41,861 nucleotides of DNA from a virus (taxonomy: Duplodnaviria > Caudoviricetes), in IMG/VR virus record IMGVR_UViG_3300044723_010973, positions 1 through 41,861 of that record. One strand, given 5' to 3'. Under the pieces are notes generated by a model. It saw nothing but the letters and a program-made list of their open reading frames with translations, did not search any database and had not been told where the DNA came from. The translations under genes and the position numbers were made by a program. The first letter of the stretch is position 1, and each line of letters opens with the position of its first letter. Below, piece by piece: positions 19,516 through 41,861 of this stretch.

Positions 19516-20145
19516 TTAAAGAGTACTTACTTTAGGACATCTCTCCTGATATTTTTTAACTTTATCAATTAATCTATAATTGTGATAAGCAACTAAAGCT
19601 ATCATTCCTGTTGCCCACATAATGTCTTCATTTTGTACAACATATCTATTATAATCTGGATGGTAGATAGGATATAATGTAATTGCTTTATGTGCTATCA
19701 ATCTTTCTAGTGATGGTCTGTTTGGTAATAATGGATTGGCTTCATATGTGCATTCATACTTCATTGCTTGATTCGTATAATGCACATCAGCTATATTTAC
19801 AAGAGTTAAAGCTACCCACCAATACCAATCAGCTGGTTCTAACCAGTCTTTCTTAATTGACAGTGTAAATGGTGACAGGCTCTGTCTTTCCTTTGACAGT
19901 GATGGTATCGACTTTATTGAATTTTCCAGATGTACTTGCTTTATGAGTGAACTCCGATAGCAACAAGTCCACCCCATCGTAATTTCGTGTTTGGCTTTCG
20001 AGTCTAGCTGCAAGGTTGACGGCATCTCCAATGACGGAATAGTCAAATCTAACTTCTGATCCCATGTTTCCGACGATGCAGTCACCTGTATTGACACCAA
20101 TGCCAACATTGATAGGAGGCAAGCCGAGAGGTTTAAGTTCTTCAT
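19516..20145 (-). CDS. Putative exported/membrane protein overlapping the cyclase 3' end (start uncertain: 20166, 20145 or 19977)
   Basis: Signal-peptide-like MKNLNLSACLLSMLALVSIQVTAS; non-overlapping part has ADVHYT...EANPLL and two hydrophobic helices. Confidence 0.6.
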   Translation of the reverse strand: MKNLNLSACLLSMLALVSIQVTASSETWDQKLDLTIPSLEMPSTLQLDSKAKHEITMGWTCCYRSSLIKQVHLENSIKSIPSLSKERQSLSPFTLSIKKDWLEPADWYWWVALTLVNIADVHYTNQAMKYECTYEANPLLPNRPSLERLIAHKAITLYPIYHPDYNRYVVQNEDIMWATGMIALVAYHNYRLIDKVKKYQERCPKVSTL

Positions 20146-21712
20146 TGAGTTTCTTAGTAGCTTCAATTATTTCTACACTTGTTTTGATTGCCATATCGGC
20201 ATGGTTGTCACACGGTAAAGGAGCATTCCAAAAGGCCATAATACAATCGCCCATATACTTGTCTACCGTTCCCCCATTATTTAGTATAATCTTTGTTTGT
20301 AAATCTAAAAACTTATTTACTAACTCTACCAATCCTTCAGGGTCGTCGTTGTTCTTATAATGCTCTGATATAGGAGTGAATCCACATATATCCATGAACA
20401 TAAAACTCATCTCTTTTCTTTCACCACCTAACTTTAATAAAGATGGATCATCCTGTAGTTGCTTTACTAAGTCAGGTGATACATAAGTACCAAATTGTTT
20501 TTTAATTTCTTGCTTTTGTTTATAAGTATTATAAAATTGTACAAATGCGCCATGGCTAAATACTAATACGGTAGAAACAATAATCCAAGTTGGATCAAAT
20601 AAGAGATATTTTGAATAGAAAACTGAAGAAGAAGCTAAACCAACAAACCCAACGAAAACGAGGCTGGCAACACCAGACATCCAAACGGCAGCTCGACTTA
20701 ATAGAACGAGACAAAGAAGACCAAGAAGTGCTTGAGCGATTAGCTCGACAAAAGAAAAATAATTGGGACGTTTAATAACGGTACCATCTATCATTGTCTT
20801 TACTAAATTAGCCTGAATATCATGAGGGTACATTGCACCTACAGGAGTGGGTATAATATTTGTTCCCTCAAATGTAGCTCCTATTATCAAGATACTACCC
20901 TGAGGTATATTCTCTCCCCTTATATCCCCTAAGCTAACACGTTTAAATTTATTCCAGTACGTGTTATATACTGTTCCATCATTTAACGTAGAGATCTTGT
21001 CATACGCAGGGATACGCACCCATTCAATACCAATATCGTTAGTTTTTATCTGATATGAAATATCGCCAACGGCAACCCTTAGAATTTCTAGAGCAAAAGA
21101 AGGATATACCTTTTTATTAGCTGAAACTACAATAGGTACTTTTCTAACTACACCATCTATGTCAGGTACAGCACCTATTGATCCATAACCGTCTGTTGAT
21201 TTAGCTAAAACTTCCCATGGTAATAATATTCCTGGAAAATCTAAAGTATATTCTTGAGCTGGTATTCTACCTAAAGTTGCTGTACCGACGTGTAATTCTC
21301 TCTCAGTTTGAATTTGATTAGTCGGGGCAGTAGCTAATATAGTAGGATAATATTGTAATGTTTCTGCCAGATTCCAATCACCATTAAATCTATCTTTTTC
21401 TGAAAGTATAATAGAAAGCGCAACCAGGTTATTGGGAGGAATATTATTTAACTCAAAGGCAAACTCATCTCTTGGCCATGGCCATTGACCTAATTTTTTT
21501 AGTGACTTTTCATCTATATCAATTAAAATTATTTGATCAGATAATTGCACCTCATGATTACGTTGAAGCATATCAAAATAATTTAATCTTGTTGCTTCTA
21601 ATAAAAAAGGATCAGCTACTCTTAGAGCTAAAAGAGCTAGTAATGTTATTCCGGCGTGCCAGAGTTTCAATTTTGTGTAACCGATATTGAACAGCCACCA
21701 ACTGTGTAGCAA
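19853..21712 (-). CDS. CHASE2-domain class III adenylate cyclase (possible TTG start at 21670)
   Basis: CHASE2 motifs IDIDEKSL..LGQWPWPR and D.DGVVR; three TM helices; catalytic FMDICGFT, DKYMGDCIMAFWNAP, GNMGS..RFDYSVIGDAVNLAARLE (Lys/Asp pair consistent with ATP). Confidence 0.93.
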   Translation of the reverse strand: MLHSWWLFNIGYTKLKLWHAGITLLALLALRVADPFLLEATRLNYFDMLQRNHEVQLSDQIILIDIDEKSLKKLGQWPWPRDEFAFELNNIPPNNLVALSIILSEKDRFNGDWNLAETLQYYPTILATAPTNQIQTERELHVGTATLGRIPAQEYTLDFPGILLPWEVLAKSTDGYGSIGAVPDIDGVVRKVPIVVSANKKVYPSFALEILRVAVGDISYQIKTNDIGIEWVRIPAYDKISTLNDGTVYNTYWNKFKRVSLGDIRGENIPQGSILIIGATFEGTNIIPTPVGAMYPHDIQANLVKTMIDGTVIKRPNYFSFVELIAQALLGLLCLVLLSRAAVWMSGVASLVFVGFVGLASSSVFYSKYLLFDPTWIIVSTVLVFSHGAFVQFYNTYKQKQEIKKQFGTYVSPDLVKQLQDDPSLLKLGGERKEMSFMFMDICGFTPISEHYKNNDDPEGLVELVNKFLDLQTKIILNNGGTVDKYMGDCIMAFWNAPLPCDNHADMAIKTSVEIIEATKKLNEELKPLGLPPINVGIGVNTGDCIVGNMGSEVRFDYSVIGDAVNLAARLESQTRNYDGVDLLLSEFTHKASTSGKFNKVDTITVKGKTEPVTIYTVN

Positions 21713-22413
21713 TAATTTGTAACACTATATGATTGATTTAGATTGCTTGCTTGAGTAGCCCCAATTGTTGTGGGTTCAGTTCCTCTTAGTATAACAGACA
21801 TGTAATGGTCACCACCATTATCTTGAATAAGGTCGACATCATTACCATCATTAAAAATATCTAAATTGATAAATTTACTACTACCACCTTTTTGATCTGT
21901 AAAAATATCATTATCATCTCCTTCAAGATGCAACCAATATTCATGGCCTAAAGAATTGATGTTTGTTTTTTGTGTCATAAGAATAGTATTGTCATTACCC
22001 GTAATGTTTAGATGAGCAAAAGTATCTCCATACTCATCATTATCAATAGTAAAATTTCCACTAGTGTCAACATTATATCCTTGACCAAGTTTTAATGTAT
22101 TTCCATCTCCCCAAACTCTACGAATCTCTATAATATTTTTGTTACCTGAACCACCACTATCATTTGCTTGTTTTATAATAACAGTATTATCAATACCATC
22201 GATTCCTTCTAAAGCTGTCCATTGTTTAATAACATTATTATAACCAATTTGAGTTATATCAAGGTTAAAGTTATCACCATCTTGTAAAATTGTAATTTGG
22301 TTATCATCAGCATGCAGAGGGGCAATAAGTAAAATAAAAGGAGCCCATGGTTTTATCCAATATTTAAATATAAATGCTTTAATTCGAGTAAACATAAATC
22401 GTTTTCTTTCCAT
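21667..22413 (-). CDS. Curlin-repeat secreted protein (CsgA/CsgB-like)
   Basis: Signal peptide, then repeats ILQDGDNFNLDITQIGYNN, ITGNDNTILMTQ, LEGDDNDIFTDQ, FNDGNDVDLIQ. Confidence 0.7.
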   Translation of the reverse strand: MERKRFMFTRIKAFIFKYWIKPWAPFILLIAPLHADDNQITILQDGDNFNLDITQIGYNNVIKQWTALEGIDGIDNTVIIKQANDSGGSGNKNIIEIRRVWGDGNTLKLGQGYNVDTSGNFTIDNDEYGDTFAHLNITGNDNTILMTQKTNINSLGHEYWLHLEGDDNDIFTDQKGGSSKFINLDIFNDGNDVDLIQDNGGDHYMSVILRGTEPTTIGATQASNLNQSYSVTNYCYTVGGCSISVTQN

Positions 22414-22455
22414 CTGTATAAACTGATATTAATAATCTTCTAGTTTTCCAGAATT

Positions 22456-22599
22456 TCATCCTTGTCCTCTATACTTCTTCAAAGATCTCTTTTTATTTTT
22501 ATTCATTGTAGCTCTAGCTACATTATTTCTTCCTTGCGAAGTTTTTTTACCTCTAATTCCAGCAGTAGGTACGTGATTTTTTTGAAATTTAGTAGCCAT
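22456..22599 (-). CDS. Small basic protein (47 aa)
   Basis: Manual translation MATKFQKNHVPTAGIRGKKTSQGRNNVARATMNKNKKRSLKKYRGQG; abuts the stop of the upstream ORF. Confidence 0.65.
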   Translation of the reverse strand: MATKFQKNHVPTAGIRGKKTSQGRNNVARATMNKNKKRSLKKYRGQG

Positions 22600-22800
22600 C
22601 TATTCCCACACTAATTTAACGCCTCTTCGGGCTAATTCATTTCTGCATTTCTGCTTAATTTTAGGTTTCTGACCATTATTTATATAGTCTATAAGTTCCT
22701 TCTTTGGAGTTTGCTTAATATAAAAATGTTCTATTGGAGCAGTATTAGGGTTACCGCCTCTTACGAATTTCTTTGCTGATGGTTTAAATTTTGTTGGCAT
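22600..22800 (-). CDS. Small basic hypothetical protein
   Basis: MPTKFKPS...KIKQKCRNELARRG with GGAG Shine-Dalgarno. Confidence 0.65.
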   Translation of the reverse strand: MPTKFKPSAKKFVRGGNPNTAPIEHFYIKQTPKKELIDYINNGQKPKIKQKCRNELARRGVKLVWE

Positions 22801-22941
22801 TATATACTCCTGCTCTCCTAGCATCTTTTATTTTTGCTTCATCTCTTATCTTTTTGCTTTTATCTGAGATAGGTTTAAGCATCCATAAATATTCTTTTTT
22901 AATATTGCTCATATTATATATCCTTTTATTAATAAAATCAA

Positions 22942-24099
22942 CTAGTTACCTTGTTTAATTAATATAATTATATCATCACCACCATTACCAAGAATAGTAC
23001 CTTGATACCCGTCAACGTTAGTAGATAAACTAAAGCTAGCTCCTGCACCGAATGTTATACTAATAACACCATTAACATTTCTATATACTACTAGTTTACC
23101 ATCTTCTTCAAATACATTATATTGACTATCATTGTTTAAACCAAATTGAGCACCTTTAAGAGTCCATCCTCCAATATTACCTGTACCAGCTTGAGCATCA
23201 CCAAGTTCTTCTGTTGTTCTTAATAACTCTTCTACAGCATCTAATAAGTCAGGTAAAAAGTCACCAGCTAGATAGTCGATATCTATTCTTCCATTTCTTG
23301 CGTCATATTCTGGATCATTAGCGTAATCATCATAATCTTTATCAAGCTCATCATATGCTAAAAAGTCAACATCAAGAATACCTTGATCTTCATTCATATC
23401 TGCCTGAGCATTTTCTTCTATCTGTTCTTTTACTTCAGGAGGAGGATTAACAATAAACATATTATCAATCATATTAGGTGTAATGTTATTAAGCGTTAAA
23501 GTTTGACTAGGGGGTGTATCTAAAGTATTTACCATTGTAGCTTGATATGCTTCATTTAAGGTAATAGTACCACCTAAATTAGTAACTGTTATTTCACCAG
23601 ATGCGTCCCCGTTTTCATCTGGTAATAATATAATTAATGACCTACCTATCTCATCTACTGTTGTAGTAAAATCCGTACCTCTAATTCCAATAGTAGCGGT
23701 AGGTGTTTTTATATCTATATTCTTCTTGTTCATTATAGCAAGTTTACCAGATGCAAATCTTGCGGTACCTTGAACAAATTGCATAGTCATTTTTGATTTG
23801 CTTGGATCGGGATCATAAATTACTTCGTCGATTAAAATTTTTGTATGTTCAGTAAGAGCTAATTCAGCTTTATCTTTAAACTCAATAAGCATTCTGCCAT
23901 TAGCAGTTTCTGCTGTATCGTATAACTCTATTTTTGGAAGGAAATCCTCTGTAAGGATTAGTTGATTGTCATTTCTGACTATTTGACCAGCACCAGTCTG
24001 CTCAATTATGTCACCTATGGGGTCAGCAAAGACCCCATTGATGAGTAACAAATTAAGAATCGCTAGACGAATCTTTTTGATTAATTTGTATTGTTGCAT
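22942..24099 (-). CDS. FecR-domain periplasmic protein
   Basis: Signal peptide; T.NGRM.I.F.D...L.L.E.T and IKTPTATIGIRGTDF FecR motifs. Confidence 0.85.
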   Translation of the reverse strand: MQQYKLIKKIRLAILNLLLINGVFADPIGDIIEQTGAGQIVRNDNQLILTEDFLPKIELYDTAETANGRMLIEFKDKAELALTEHTKILIDEVIYDPDPSKSKMTMQFVQGTARFASGKLAIMNKKNIDIKTPTATIGIRGTDFTTTVDEIGRSLIILLPDENGDASGEITVTNLGGTITLNEAYQATMVNTLDTPPSQTLTLNNITPNMIDNMFIVNPPPEVKEQIEENAQADMNEDQGILDVDFLAYDELDKDYDDYANDPEYDARNGRIDIDYLAGDFLPDLLDAVEELLRTTEELGDAQAGTGNIGGWTLKGAQFGLNNDSQYNVFEEDGKLVVYRNVNGVISITFGAGASFSLSTNVDGYQGTILGNGGDDIIILIKQGN

Positions 24100-24787
24100 T
24101 ATCAGATGTAATATCTAAATCTATAGTTGCATTTGGTGTAGAACAACTAACTCCTGCACTTGTTGCACAAGTACCTGAGATTTGATTAATATCTATGTCA
24201 GCTGAATCACCGTTTAATTGCATTGTTAATGACTGAGAGCCATCATTCTGCAATGTATTAATATTATTACTGTCACCAGTAATATCAAAATTCCATGTTA
24301 TATCATCTGCTTCCCAATCAATATCAAATATATTAGAACTACCTAATAATATAAGGTCTGCATCTAATCTTTCTGCGCTTGCTGTATAACCTTGATCTAA
24401 ATCAAATGTATTACTGTCTCCAGTAACATTAAAATTAATATCGGAGCTATCAGAACTTCCGATATATCCTATATTCCAATCTATTTGATTTGAATCACCA
24501 GTAAAATCTAGCTTGTAAGTTGAACTATCAGCTATAACTGTCCCAAATAATATATTTTGATTTCCTAAAAAATCTAAATCAAAATTAAGGCTAGATCCAG
24601 TTATTACCATATCTGAACCTGTACCTGAAAAATCTGTACCACCTATCTTATTACCAAAACCAAGTTGGTCAATATATAGAGATAAAGTGTCACCTGATTG
24701 TTCGATTAAGATTTCGTTATCATCAGTGGCTTGCGCGAAAACAAAAGAAGTCGACAATAGCAATGCTATACTTATAAGTTTATTCAT
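24053..24787 (-). CDS. Curlin-repeat secreted protein (CsgA/CsgB-like)
   Basis: Signal peptide ending VFA; repeats FTGDSNQIDW, VTGDSNTFDLDQG, LLGSSNIFDIDW, ITGDSNNINTLQ, LNGDSADIDINQ. Confidence 0.72.
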   Translation of the reverse strand: MNKLISIALLLSTSFVFAQATDDNEILIEQSGDTLSLYIDQLGFGNKIGGTDFSGTGSDMVITGSSLNFDLDFLGNQNILFGTVIADSSTYKLDFTGDSNQIDWNIGYIGSSDSSDINFNVTGDSNTFDLDQGYTASAERLDADLILLGSSNIFDIDWEADDITWNFDITGDSNNINTLQNDGSQSLTMQLNGDSADIDINQISGTCATSAGVSCSTPNATIDLDITSDNATIQINQKDSSSDS

Positions 24788-25682
24788 TTTCGTTTACCCT
24801 TTCTTCTATTACCCAGAATCCTCTTTCGTGACCCTGGTAAATTAATTCCAGCACACCAGCTTCAATAGCTGTTCGTACTGCATATGTCACCGACTCATTA
24901 TTCCCCACACCATCTTCAAACTCGACTAATTGAGTTCCTTGCTCGATAAAACGGAAGACGTCTCCTCCTGAGCCATAACTCAGTATAGTCTTTCTCGTTT
25001 GAACATTTAATAATATCTCACCAGTGAGAACCGACACTGCTCTCATTGAAATTGTAACAACATCTTGGCGATATTGTTTACTTAAACCTATTCCTAGAGT
25101 TCGAGCACCTCGTCCTCCTGATTTTATATTAGTATCGTACCCTATTATTCCACCTTCTATTATTATACCAGCGAATAATAATGGTTGAATACCCTTATCA
25201 TCTTGTCCTGTTTTATTTGCCACATCAGTTCTAGCTGATCTGATAATCTGTCTTTCTCTTACTAAATGGTCAATACCACTTCTTTCTACTACTCTAAACC
25301 ATGTACCGCTACCTGCTGTTTTTAGGGCATCGATAACCATTTCTACCCCACCTTGAGTTACAGCAGTGGAGAAATCTGCTATTCCTTCTCTTGCCTTTCT
25401 TTGACCTGTTTTATCAATAAAATTATAAACAGTAACAACAGGTTTTTCTTTCGCTGGGGGTAGTTGTAATAATTCTAAGTAAGATGGTAATTTTACTACT
25501 TCAGGATTTTCAATGCAGATATATTTTCTACTAACTGATTTAGCAACTCCTGTTACAACGTCTTTATTCCAGCCCTCTTCGTACTTACCTGTTTCATACG
25601 CACATTGACCTGGTCCTTCTGACCATTGCGGTACTGATGCGCAGCTTGTAAGTAGTAATGCTGTTAAAATATATTTAACCAT
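24780..25682 (-). CDS. csgG: Curli secretion channel CsgG (lipoprotein)
   Basis: Lipobox LLLTSC; VYNFIDKTGQRK, FSTAVTQG, WFRVVER, LVRERQIIRS, EGGIIGYDTN, QYRQDVVT.SMRAVSV.TGEIL. Confidence 0.93.
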   Translation of the reverse strand: MVKYILTALLLTSCASVPQWSEGPGQCAYETGKYEEGWNKDVVTGVAKSVSRKYICIENPEVVKLPSYLELLQLPPAKEKPVVTVYNFIDKTGQRKAREGIADFSTAVTQGGVEMVIDALKTAGSGTWFRVVERSGIDHLVRERQIIRSARTDVANKTGQDDKGIQPLLFAGIIIEGGIIGYDTNIKSGGRGARTLGIGLSKQYRQDVVTISMRAVSVLTGEILLNVQTRKTILSYGSGGDVFRFIEQGTQLVEFEDGVGNNESVTYAVRTAIEAGVLELIYQGHERGFWVIEERVNENE

Positions 25683-26154
25683 TATCTGGATCTTGCCCAA
25701 AGTTTCCTGTACCTACTGGAATCTCTAATACTGTTTCAGTACCATCTTCTGATACTACCGTTAATCTTATAAACTCTGCACCTGATTCATCTGTAATAAC
25801 TTCCCAAGTAATAATATTACCTTCTAAAGCAAATGATCCGAACCCTGCAGGGTTATCATTAGCAAACATTGATTCAACCAATTGCTTGGCAAATTGTGCG
25901 TAGATTCTAGACTCTAAGTTACGAATGAACTTAGCTAATGTTGTATTTTCTGCTTCTCTTTCAGCCGTTTTTCTAGCTGATTCAAGAGCTTCTTCTATTG
26001 TTTTCTTTCTAGAGTGCTCTTGGTTTTCTATAGTAAGGTAATGCGCACCCTGACCAATTCCACTGAATGAAGGATTTTTAAACTCATGGACTATTTCCTG
26101 AGCAAATACTGATGATGTAATTAAAAATAAGCTACTTACGATTGCCCTTTTCAT
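25675..26154 (-). CDS. csgF: Curli assembly component CsgF
   Basis: Signal peptide, then EIVHEFKNPSFSG (CsgF N-terminal NPxFxG), F...LESRIYAQ, C-terminal TVLEIP; adjacent to csgG. Confidence 0.85.
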   Translation of the reverse strand: MKRAIVSSLFLITSSVFAQEIVHEFKNPSFSGIGQGAHYLTIENQEHSRKKTIEEALESARKTAEREAENTTLAKFIRNLESRIYAQFAKQLVESMFANDNPAGFGSFALEGNIITWEVITDESGAEFIRLTVVSEDGTETVLEIPVGTGNFGQDPDNG

Positions 26155-37444: not shown

Positions 37445-37471
37445 GACGCCTCCTACCTTGCGGTAATAGAC

Positions 37472-37522
37472 GCGTTCCTTCGGCTTAATTGCCTACTTCC
37501 GTCACAATAAGTGATGAACGAT
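37472..37522 (-). ncRNA. Glutamine-I riboswitch (glnA RNA motif)
   Basis: ATCGTTC-ATCACTTATTGTGAC-GGAAGTA-GGC-AATTAA-GCC-GAAG-GAACGC: P1 CGTTC/GAACG, P2 hairpin, GGAAGUA/GAA E-loop, P3. Confidence 0.88.
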
Positions 37523-39259: not shown

Positions 39260-39501
39260 GCCAGCCTCCAACATCTGTATTCACCTTCAGTTTTACGCAC
39301 AGTATAAATGGCAGTATTGCCTTCCTTCTTCCAATAGTTAATACAATTACGCACATTAATCGAATCAGGATAAGTATTGATCGAAAACGATTCACCTACC
39401 CCCATCTTATTAATCACCTCATCATACGCTGCCACTTTAGTAGCGCGAGGGCGCCTGTACTTTCGTCCAGGCAACCCAACTTTTTCTAGTTTTATTTTCA
39501 T
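39256..39501 (-). CDS. Small basic, putative DNA-binding protein
   Basis: LEKVGLP...Y...M.VGESF...VRK....RCWR. Confidence 0.65.
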   Translation of the reverse strand: MKIKLEKVGLPGRKYRRPRATKVAAYDEVINKMGVGESFSINTYPDSINVRNCINYWKKEGNTAIYTVRKTEGEYRCWRLA

Positions 39502-39893
39502 TAAGCCCTCCCGGCTCTATAGTTATTAATCGCAAGCTCATCAACACGCTCCCAACCCATGGAAGCGCATATCCATAACTCACCACAATCAGTTTTGATA
39601 TGGTCACCAACTGAAGTTGATCTCATACCGTACTGACGTCCCTTATGAGTCTTGAGAGGTACAATGCATACCACTCTTTCATCATAATCTTCATTCTCAA
39701 TCCAGCTACCATCACGCAACTGAATCTGTTTACCCATACTCCAGCTTCCATCAAGATTTTGAGTCTTGATGAAAACCGTTTCTAGATCTTGCATTCTGGA
39801 TTGACCAGTCTGCTCAATATCCATAACAGCTACTTCTCGAGCTTGTTCACCTTCTTCTAAAAAGGTTGAGTGAATTAAAGTATATCTTTTCAT
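39501..39893 (-). CDS. YodL-like hypothetical protein
   Basis: LE.VF..TQN and RSTSVGD...C...GW motifs; AAGGAG Shine-Dalgarno; promoter TTGAAT-16 nt-TACAAT at 39927-39954. Confidence 0.6.
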   Translation of the reverse strand: MKRYTLIHSTFLEEGEQAREVAVMDIEQTGQSRMQDLETVFIKTQNLDGSWSMGKQIQLRDGSWIENEDYDERVVCIVPLKTHKGRQYGMRSTSVGDHIKTDCGELWICASMGWERVDELAINNYRAGRA

Positions 39894-39950
39894 GTTATTC
39901 TCCTTATTATTTAAAAACATAATATAATTGTATACTCCTCAGAATAAAAT

Positions 39951-40285: not shown

Positions 40286-40422
40286 ATCACCCCTCCTGCA
40301 ATTGCTGGTACTATCATAGCTACCAACACACCAAATGCTATTATTATAATCAGCCAATCTATAAGGCTCTCTTTATCAAAAGGCCCCCAAATAGCTTCTA
40401 AATACTTATTACGTTCTTTCAT
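40282..40422 (-). CDS. Small membrane protein (46 aa)
   Basis: MKERNKYLEAIWGPFDKESLIDWLIIIAFGVLVAMIVPAIAGGVI; GAGGAG Shine-Dalgarno; promoter TTGTAA-17 nt-TACAAT at 40456-40484. Confidence 0.6.
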   Translation of the reverse strand: MKERNKYLEAIWGPFDKESLIDWLIIIIAFGVLVAMIVPAIAGGVI

Positions 40423-40731
40423 GTTCTCCTCCTATAATTAATTGAACATAATATTATTGTAATTACATTTCAACTTTATTACAACTTTTTATTGTTTTGT
40501 ATGGTAATCGATTTAAAAGGCGTTATAATAAACGAAAGGTTATTGTTACTGCAGACACAAGAAGCCACATTTCAATCAATCAGGAGTGAATTAAGTGGAA
40601 TGGGTACGAGAAAAATTAAAGGCAATAATAGACACAATTAATATTATAATCTGGTTCATAGGACTAGCTACAATAATAGGATTTATCTGAGAGTTGCATT
40701 TTTGTAAAAAGGGTCTATAATACTCTGTATT

Positions 40732-40866
40732 ATGGATATTTTAATTATAGGTTCAGGTTTTTGGATAGCGATGAGGGTACTTACTCTCATGGAAGTTCTA
40801 TTCGGTGTTAAACCTAAACGAACATACAACAGACCATCTAAGAAAGATCCTTTTAGGTGGACCTAG
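40732..40866 (+). CDS. Small hydrophobic peptide with a basic tail (44 aa)
   Basis: MDILIIGSGFWIAMRVLTLMEVLFGVKPKRTYNRPSKKDPFRWT; promoter TTGCAT-16 nt-TATAAT at 40694-40721. Confidence 0.55.
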   Translation: MDILIIGSGFWIAMRVLTLMEVLFGVKPKRTYNRPSKKDPFRWT

Positions 40867-40910
40867 TCATCAACTTTTAGTATACCACTCCTTACTAAAG
40901 TTGGGCCAAA

Positions 40911-40936
40911 GGGGCAGCGACAGCTGCCCTTTTTTT
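40911..40936 (+). terminator. Intrinsic terminator
   Basis: GGGCAGC-GACA-GCTGCCC followed by a T7 run. Confidence 0.8.
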
Positions 40937-41000
40937 GTGTGTATTAAAAAAGCCCCAATATTATAATCTTTCACAACAAAAATCAACTAGTATTTAAAAC

Positions 41001-41026
41001 AAAAAAAAGCAGCTCTTGCGAGCTGC
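41001..41026 (-). terminator. Intrinsic terminator
   Basis: GCAGCTC-GCAA-GAGCTGC followed by T8 on the - strand. Confidence 0.85.
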
Positions 41027-41282
41027 TCTTCCCATCAATTAACTAATAAGGAGGTAATATGATGTTTAAACTTAGGTGGCAGGATGCTTTTAACCCCTGC
41101 CGTATTTCAATTACTCGCTAAAGTAATTCAGGATCCAGGTCCGCGCGAAGGTAGGATTGTTTATCAGTTATCTATAGTTCTGATATCACCGAATGCCGAA
41201 GCAATACTCAACGCTTATAATTTGCTGTCCTGTTAACAGGATAATCTCTTTTCTCGCTAAAGTCAAGAGGGTCCTGCTAAGT
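41001..41282 (-). ncRNA. Candidate ~280-nt structured non-coding RNA
   Basis: Promoter-like TGGCCT-17 nt-TATAAT (41289-41317), closing helix ACTTAG/CTAAGT, multiple stems, strong terminator, no ORF of 60 aa or more in the track. Confidence 0.6.
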
Positions 41283-41333
41283 GTTTGTATTATAGCAGCC
41301 TTCAATTAAGAAGGCCACTATTTTCTTAAAGAA

Positions 41334-41510
41334 TTAATCCTTTAATGATTGCTTTGGTGTCGTATGCATCTCAAATAATCCCATTAAATTGATTTCTGCG
41401 GGGGACATCGTCTTTCTTTTCTCATCCCATTCTTCATCGCTCATCATAATGCCATTAGCATTTGTAACAAATTTCCAATCATCTTCGGTCATTCTATTAT
41501 CCTTCTTCAT
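41334..41510 (-). CDS. Small hypothetical early protein (58 aa)
   Basis: MKKDNRMTEDDWKFVTNANG...; TAAGGAG Shine-Dalgarno; promoter TTGCAA-17 nt-TATAAT at 41540-41568. Confidence 0.65.
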   Translation of the reverse strand: MKKDNRMTEDDWKFVTNANGIMMSDEEWDEKRKTMSPAEINLMGLFEMHTTPKQSLKD

Positions 41511-41589
41511 ATTACGTCTCCTTACGTTATTAAAATTATATTATAATATCATTCCAATTAAATTGCAATTAAATATAATTAAAAAAAAG

Positions 41590-41668
41590 CTTGCACTTCT
41601 CTTGAAGATAATATAATATTGGGGCCCCGTGAGCTGCAATATTATTATATTTTTTATAAAAGTGCAAG
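41590..41668. promoter_or_regulatory. Inverted pair of convergent sigma70-type promoters
   Basis: TTGCAC-17 nt-TAATAT on each strand flanking a GC-rich core GGGGCCCCGTGAGCTGC. Confidence 0.6.
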
Positions 41669-41773
41669 TGAAAGTTATATATTTTTTTTAATTAAATTAA
41701 TTTACAAGGAGAAGAGAATAGATTATAATTTAATTATATTAAATTTAATTAAATATAAAGGAGGTAATTTAAT

Positions 41774-41861
41774 ATGAGTAATTTAAAATTAAGTAATTAT
41801 AAAATTAATTTAATTTGGGATAATAATAAAAATAAAATTTATAATTTATATATTAATAAAT
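41774..41861 (+). CDS. Very AT-rich ORF, truncated by the window end
   Basis: TTTACA-17 nt-TATAAT promoter (41701-41729), AAGGAGGT Shine-Dalgarno, open frame MSNLKLSNYKINLIWD... Confidence 0.55.
   Translation, partial: MSNLKLSNYKINLIWDNNKNKIYNLYINK

Follow-up and report, generated by a model that had tools for sequence, protein, structure and literature searches.

What is the element on the minus strand near the end of this viral DNA, and is it whole? The window, that is the entire stretch of 41,861 nucleotides analysed, is a virus record, 24% complete, that carries T4-like genes (gp32, helicase loader, late-transcription coactivator) together with curli csgF/csgG, a CHASE2 cyclase, a tRNA-Arg and a glutamine riboswitch. 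A sequence-only reading had proposed a stand-alone structured minus-strand noncoding RNA of about 280 nt and of a kind it did not recognise. The proposal is borne out by covariation among homologs, by the lack of an Rfam family and by contigs in RNA libraries, and we are highly confident that the RNA family is real. The size is right for the window; yet, judged by alignment, this RNA is a naturally shortened (~280 nt) form of an ORF-free phage RNA of 577-621 nt, made up of the 3' domain and the first ten bases of the latter. Its core has 42% G+C, as against 32% and 23% in the flanks. The elements of the locus are as follows.

41001..41283, minus strand: short RNA, ~280 nt, from predicted start to terminator U-tract (both ends predicted)
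41289..41317, minus strand: putative sigma-70-type promoter, from its sequence and from the matching position and spacing in L196, L206 and L264
41317-41312, minus strand: -35 TGGCCT, with a 17-nt spacer to TATAAT
41297-41289, minus strand: extended -10 TG-C-TATAAT
41273..41283, minus strand: retained 5' end of the long RNA, ACTTAGCAGG, from alignment with three full-length homologs
41275-41273, minus strand: deletion junction, AGG triplet, from alignment with three full-length homologs
41233..41280, minus strand: domain A, hairpin 1 enclosed by a 9-bp helix (41280-41272 with 41233-41241)
41259-41256, minus strand: hairpin 1 loop, U(UAGC)G, inside domain A
41129..41232, minus strand: domain B, a CAGGA/UCCUG closing helix with nested helices and a palindrome-loop hairpin
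41177-41172, minus strand: palindrome CUAUAG in the hairpin loop of domain B
41109..41128, minus strand: hairpin 2, U(UAGC)G loop at 41120-41117, 8/8 pairs kept in 4/4 sequences
41078..41101, minus strand: hairpin 3, invariant loop GGUUAAAAGC
41034..41069, minus strand: lineage-specific tail, complement of a strong translation start (anti-AUG plus anti-SD, 41061-41047)
41001..41033, minus strand: intrinsic terminator-like hairpin (41033-41002) with GCAA loop and U8 tract
41048..41121, plus strand: SD and ORF of 19-20 codons, on the strand opposite the RNA
40960..40986, minus strand: downstream promoter-like element TTGATT ... TATAAT, which travels with the RNA cassette

All motifs that the sequence-only reading had listed were found in place. 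The promoter-like TGGCCT-17-TATAAT occupies 41317-41289 on the minus strand with an extended -10 TG; a promoter-consensus scan of the window does not have it among its listed sites. Its layout is repeated in three related viruses, which carry TTGACT, TTGCCT or TTGACC with TACAAT or GACAAT at an identical distance to an identical 5' end, and all four RNAs start, 6-7 bases past the -10 box, with ACTTAGCAGG. The doubled 11-mer ACTTTAGCGAG has exact copies at 41114-41124 and 41253-41263; when the RNA is shuffled 2000 times, 9 of the shuffled sequences contain an exact repeat of that length. Exact copies of AAGGAGGTAAT lie at 41048 and 41758. The downstream promoter-like element gives a 75% match to L196 1583-1634, and promoter-like sites occur at the equivalent downstream place in L196 and L206 also. 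Promoter regions of these viruses repeatedly contain an AT-rich 9-1-9 palindrome or near-palindrome (L250 3244-3262, L196 ~1673, L206 ~1672 and L264), which resembles a Fur box.

The family as known comprises four records plus pieces derived from sequencing reads (X19, X20, X23). L196, L206 and L264 are related marine T4-like viruses that share with the window a DUF932 gene (~68% nucleotide identity) and a tRNA-Arg, and their long RNAs of 586, 621 and 577 nt run from promoter to U-tract with no ORF of more than 39 codons on either strand (3/3). L196 and L206 were the two true homologs among 17 stretches returned by a pattern built on one invariant block, and L264 came through a neighbouring ORF common to the three viruses (3 loci, two of them already known). 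A metagenome pattern scan yielded one homolog among 54 stretches, L250, a separate assembly of the window's virus that is 99.9% identical to it. X19 is a diverged DNA-read piece with the invariant blocks, found among four low-share DNA runs. Other patterns returned no homolog: the doubled 10-mer gave five stretches, all simple repeats, the combination of 5' end, loop and TCCTG gave 0/6, hairpin 2 gave 0/33 and hairpin 3 with the window's stem 0/61. In the full-length homologs the loop of hairpin 3 is invariant, while its stem is wholly replaced and followed directly by the U-tract. An exact 22-base pattern had no occurrence in GTDB genomes, and blastn gave no significant match in cultured phages or plasmids. 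Among virus records related by DUF932 or gp32, most of them less than 50% complete, the RNA of the window gave 14-19-base chance matches in 6 of 50, a model of the middle domain gave 0/49, and a model of the 3' domain gave 2/49, which are the positive control and one 15-bit match judged to be chance; in a set of 41 such records, again mostly less than 50% complete, the single match of the 3'-domain model was the positive control. Relatives of gp32 in GTDB were found in bins of unrelated taxa, and a relative search with the neighbouring gene ORF 39501-39920 returned none.

The long forms are mutually 76-78% identical. Their 5' domain is the most variable part (58-67%), and the middle and 3' domains reach 80-89%; over the 3' domain the three homologs are 83-89% identical to each other, and the window is 64-76% identical to them. 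One-base indels and short ORFs among the homologs led us to reject a coding role. Over ~80 nt the window (41141-41220) and L196 (~1440-1518) are identical, although L196 is otherwise nearer to L264 in the 3' domain; on the alignment, this patch looks like the recent exchange of one module between copies of the RNA. An optional branch with a GAAA-capped hairpin (L206 ~1410-1465; a loose end in X19) replaces the UUCG hairpin of the window at 41194-41205, and L264 is without both.

Is the structure conserved? Folding of single sequences alone proves neither structure nor strand, because the core without the terminator gives nearly equal z values on both strands (-1.8 on the minus, -2.0 on the plus); for the whole unit the minus strand has z = -3.4 and the plus strand -1.75, and L196 by itself folds no better than shuffles (z +0.35). 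Across the long form, 34 of 158 predicted pairs are changed on both sides. In the middle domain 98.7% of cells are paired and 14/53 pairs changed on both sides, and in the 3' domain, window included, the figures are 92.9% and 9/39, a count that leaves out three short out-of-register helices and in which two helices of L206 are shifted by one alignment column. For neither domain did any of 500 shuffles reach the observed values. The comparison does not amount to a significance test, since each covariation count comes from three to four sequences, of which two hardly differ in the 3' domain, and the alignments used for scoring had also supplied the structures. Slid registers of the two domain alignments drop to 31-42% paired. 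The consensus folds better than column shuffles in three alignments (z -5.5, -5.3 and -3.3). By consensus energy the annotated strand is the better one for the long RNA as well as for the middle domain, while the 3' domain shows no preference; it is the G-U/G-C exchanges and the promoter that fix the minus strand.

The homologs also correct the fold. The minimum-energy fold nests the two CAGGA/TCCTG stems, whereas the homologs pair each CAGGA with the next TCCTG, giving two side-by-side domains, and the closing helix of domain B reads CAGGA/UCCUG, CCGGA/UCCGG and CUGGA/UCCAG among them. The nested minimum-energy pairing, with 47.5% of cells paired and zero covariation, was rejected; the comparative fold of the short form lies 2.9 kcal/mol above the minimum-energy fold and takes up ~10% of the predicted ensemble. 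As to the doubled loop motif, what survives comparison is the Y(UAGC)G tetraloop, placed on covarying stems in 4/4 aligned sequences, whereas the full 11-mer is not conserved. X19 keeps the stem of hairpin 2 and has its UAGC loop replaced; the CUAUAG-palindrome loop, invariant in 4/4 aligned sequences, is likewise changed in X19. Candidate loop-loop pairs hold in 3/3 long forms and are near-invariant, hence they carry no covariation.

How did the short form arise? The window joins the first ten bases to the 3' domain at AGG, and ~370 nt between two AGG triplets are gone. Two near relatives in the reads, X20 (DNA) and X23 (RNA), are at least 95% identical to the window over the 3' domain; they depart from it exactly at 41275 and continue into the GGCCCC linker of the long form. 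The short junction is no assembly error, since it recurs in L250 and a single DNA contig from another study (run X18, depth 2.3) spans it. The missing middle domain is nowhere else in the window or in L250; with the genome 24% complete, a separate 5' piece is possible. In the short form the junction helix has nine contiguous pairs (41280-41272 with 41233-41241). Long-form relatives have other letters at 41235-41237, which fit their own U-rich 5' side, and at 41276/41237 the short form pairs C-G where two long-form relatives pair U-A. We infer that the altered letters compensate for the deletion, although a template switch at the deletion would give identical letters. Of the variants scored elsewhere, four kinds preserve a pair or make it better, two affect unpaired positions, and for that of X19 at 41137 the partner is uncovered. 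The short form is probably maintained rather than decaying, given that its junction helix is re-paired with the altered 5' end. A rearrangement is visible besides: in comparison with L196, L206 and L264, the RNA with its downstream promoter-like element (window 40955-41283) is inverted relative to the flanking genes. X20 combines the cassette orientation of the window with the long form, therefore the inversion preceded the deletion.

Does the RNA occur in RNA libraries? Among four RNA runs, selected for holding some part of the stretch 40400-41861, three contain a contig on the RNA core (41116-41271, 41140-41269 and 41129-41275); contigs from such libraries show no strand, ends or level, and DNA may be present. 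The contigs 41116-41271 and 41140-41269 are identical to the window, short-form marker letters included, and in these two runs the rest of the stretch is uncovered. The contig of the third run is a 442-nt long form at a depth of 230, and the relative of the neighbouring gene in that run stands at 5.2. The fourth run, X24, covers only 40578-40756, not the RNA. That RNA contigs stop at 41269-41271 in two studies, with the DNA continuing, is a weak hint of the 5' end. The 24 sequencing runs listed as containing the 1.46-kb stretch, whole or in part, are all of marine or estuarine origin, and half or more of its words are present in 13 of the 24.

What could such an RNA do? Its own promoter and terminator, the absence of an ORF, deep nested helices and invariant complementary loops are the anatomy of a trans-acting structural RNA. 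The explanation we prefer, and hold at about even confidence, is that this is a shortened member of an Rfam-unmatched phage RNA family that may act in trans as a self-assembling scaffold like GOLLD and ROOL, an analogy of size, complexity and habitat only, with zero similarity of sequence or model. Host RNA polymerase would transcribe the RNA from its sigma-70-type promoter to the intrinsic terminator, and the 3' domain would fold autonomously, an ability that, we propose, made the loss of the 5' and middle domains tolerable. Tertiary contacts, or contacts between molecules, may involve the unpaired loops that are invariant, namely two Y-UAGC-G, CUAUAG and GGUUAAAAG; UUAG could meet CUAA, for example, and the CUAUAG palindrome could pair with itself. 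The RNA particle might hold or shield a partner during infection. The same loops could serve a monomer, if two Y-UAGC-G, GGUUAAAAG and AACUAUAGAUAA titrate a regulator, a defence nuclease or another protein of the host and the short form keeps the sites. Such a decoy agrees with the conservation of both UAGC loops over covarying stems in the four aligned sequences, with the retention of exactly the two-loop domain in the short form and with a promoter of host-polymerase type; yet one UAGC loop is replaced in X19, no partner gene is consistently attached except a small hydrophobic ORF, and a plain sponge needs no middle domain as intricate as that of the long form, and we regard the decoy as unlikely. 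A decaying remnant of the long RNA, transcribed since its promoter survived, would account for the fact that ~63% of the long RNA has been lost and that several predicted long-range pairs have thereby lost a partner, while the near relatives X20 and X23 keep the long form. Decay is nevertheless quite improbable, given a junction helix re-paired at three neighbouring positions, a short form present also in L250 and bridged by a contig of another study, and a stretch at least half of whose words are held by 13 of the 24 listed runs.

Of the functions guessed from the letters (repressor, decoy, scaffold), it is the scaffold that fits best, and the translation-initiation repressor is weakened. In the latter, the tail would block SD-plus-AUG regions of phage or host mRNAs, the folded part being a stabilising carrier. 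The tail directly precedes the terminator, is predicted open at 41051-41045, resembles the complement of the virus's typical start region and pairs with many phage starts; at -15 kcal/mol or below it pairs with 13 of 47 SD-bearing starts, compared with a mean of 5.2 for shuffles that kept the CCUCCU core, one in 100 of which yields as many targets. The particular target that had been named, the ribosome-binding site of ORF 41774, ranks only 7th of the 47, however, and the best duplex (-21.6) is equalled by 18/100 shuffles. The tail is also absent from L196, L206 and L264, whose RNAs end right after hairpin 3; it differs in X19, is kept in the near relative X20, and lies beyond all three RNA contigs, which as contigs are no guide to transcript ends. 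Compared with the homologs, the window has the cassette turned round, and the tail is therefore explained equally well by targeting and by a gene start left behind on the plus strand; the plus-strand SD and ORF (41048..41121), which are not conserved, probably represent such a start. Repression by the tail is accordingly a doubtful proposition, one to which we give little credence. ORF 41774 itself, a putative gene (window 41774-end; L250 2690-3085, plus strand), would encode 131 aa, extremely rich in Asn, Leu and Lys, in very AT-rich DNA, and has no Pfam match. The other function suggested earlier, in which the RNA silences a plus-strand peptide of 19-20 aa as in type I toxin-antitoxin loci, has in its favour an ATG at 41062 with a perfect SD seven bases before it. 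The ORF does exist, but the three homologs have no such SD or start, no plus-strand promoter is listed ahead of it, the peptide is not hydrophobic and matches no Pfam or PHROG family, and conservation tracks the pairing of the minus strand; cis-antisense action is very improbable. Lower still we place a retron-like template RNA of a reverse transcriptase: the 5' UUAG with its complement near the 3' end presumably resembles such a template, and in 4/4 sequences a CUAAG able to pair with the 5' end sits close to the 3' end, but RVT_1 (PF00078) matched in none of the four records (16-24% complete), while the controls matched. The preferred scaffold reading also has a bolder version, which we consider a long shot, in which this would be a third unrelated cage-forming phage RNA family, the 200-nt 3' domain its minimal assembling unit, and tails on the multimer would sequester mRNAs. 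If so, the virus would have trimmed the RNA to the assembling unit and added a start-complementary tail, the multimer displaying many.

Next to the RNA, all four viruses have a small transcription unit (window 40692-40940, plus strand; L196 640-900; L206 597-865; L264 2900-2640). It consists of promoter-like DNA that is similar among them, an ATG ~10 bases past the -10, a hydrophobic ORF of 41-44 aa without Pfam match (two tested), a CU-rich stretch with ACTCCT and a terminator, a layout that we take to recall type I toxin mRNAs. Judged against the 20-aa ORF that it overlaps, which is neither hydrophobic nor conserved, the RNA itself does not fit a type I antitoxin. In the window the CHASE2 adenylate/guanylate cyclase gene forms a single block with FecR-domain and curli csgG/csgF genes (19853-26154, minus strand), and the glutamine riboswitch lies at 37469-37522 (minus strand, 61.9 bits). 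ARAGORN reports a tRNA-like sequence with an irregular anticodon at L266 3877-3952 (minus strand).

How does this RNA compare with known ones? In the Rfam scan of the window RNA nothing reached the gathering score, and the sub-threshold matches were weak and terminator-driven; lacking an Rfam match, identity with group I or group II introns, RNase P, SRP, 6S or tmRNA was rejected. We found no description of this RNA in the literature. PMC10690425 predicted 8495 short motifs of 29-151 nt from IMG/VR, and the searched part of its supplements (three motifs, three contig names) gave no match; a fragment may be listed there. The top cultured match of the window's DUF932 gene is Methylophilales phage Melnitz (58%), and with Melnitz-like myophages, which have a two-piece tmRNA, the present viruses have a broad virus group in common (csgF/csgG, glutamine riboswitch, DUF932); glutamine riboswitch and curli genes are reported for such phages in PMC9004378. 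ARAGORN and Rfam found no tmRNA in the window or the homolog loci, however, and the Melnitz genome matches neither the middle-domain nor the 3'-domain model.

Among large RNAs, ROOL and GOLLD are described as phage-borne RNA-only multimers or cages held by kissing loops, palindromic ones included, and the 3' domain of GOLLD alone as forming a decamer (10.1101/2024.12.08.627333; PMC12990946), whereas raiA, another large RNA, is a monomer (10.1101/2024.12.08.627333). ROOL, of ~580 nt (average 581 nt, PMC5737381), is similarly ORF-free and phage-borne with a multi-junction fold, the long form here having 577-621 nt and 158 predicted pairs; yet the 5' and 3' halves of ROOL are intertwined (10.1101/2024.12.08.627333), whereas the 3' domain of this phage RNA stands alone. 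The ROOL model (RF03087, cut-off 99.1 bits) matched none of the three homolog records at E <= 10, the L196 record included, while the positive control, L. salivarius pMP118, scored 130.4 bits; conversely, the models of the middle and 3' domains do not match this real ROOL copy. GOLLD shares with the present family a conserved 3' and a variable 5' domain and its marine and phage occurrence, but is longer, both overall (700-830 nt; here 580-620) and in its 3' domain (~375-416 nt; here ~210). Its 416-position 3'-domain model (RF02032, cut-off 150 bits), in a search run without a positive-control genome, matched 0/3 records, the best score being 11.6 bits and the weak matches lying away from the RNA; scans with all Rfam families gave no GOLLD match either. 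Both GOLLD and ROOL usually sit beside tRNA genes, whereas here the nearest tRNA-Arg is 4-5 kb away in the three homolog loci and 24.5 kb away in the window. OLE, ~600 nt and ornate, invites comparison through the small hydrophobic ORF that adjoins the RNA in all four viruses; it differs in being a cellular RNA of Gram-positive extremophiles that binds the membrane protein OapA (10.1101/2024.12.08.627333), and no Rfam match links it to the RNA described here.

The long and short forms together amount to a natural deletion experiment, with 370 nt removed, the junction re-paired, the product in RNA libraries and near relatives keeping the full RNA. The pair makes the autonomy of the 3' domain and the importance of the loops directly testable, and the sizes suit cryo-EM and chemical probing. 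Few large ornate bacterial or phage RNA families have been described (GOLLD, ROOL, OLE), and their functions are poorly understood (10.1101/2024.12.08.627333); to these the T4-like marine phages add a large-RNA family that is unrelated to GOLLD, ROOL and OLE.
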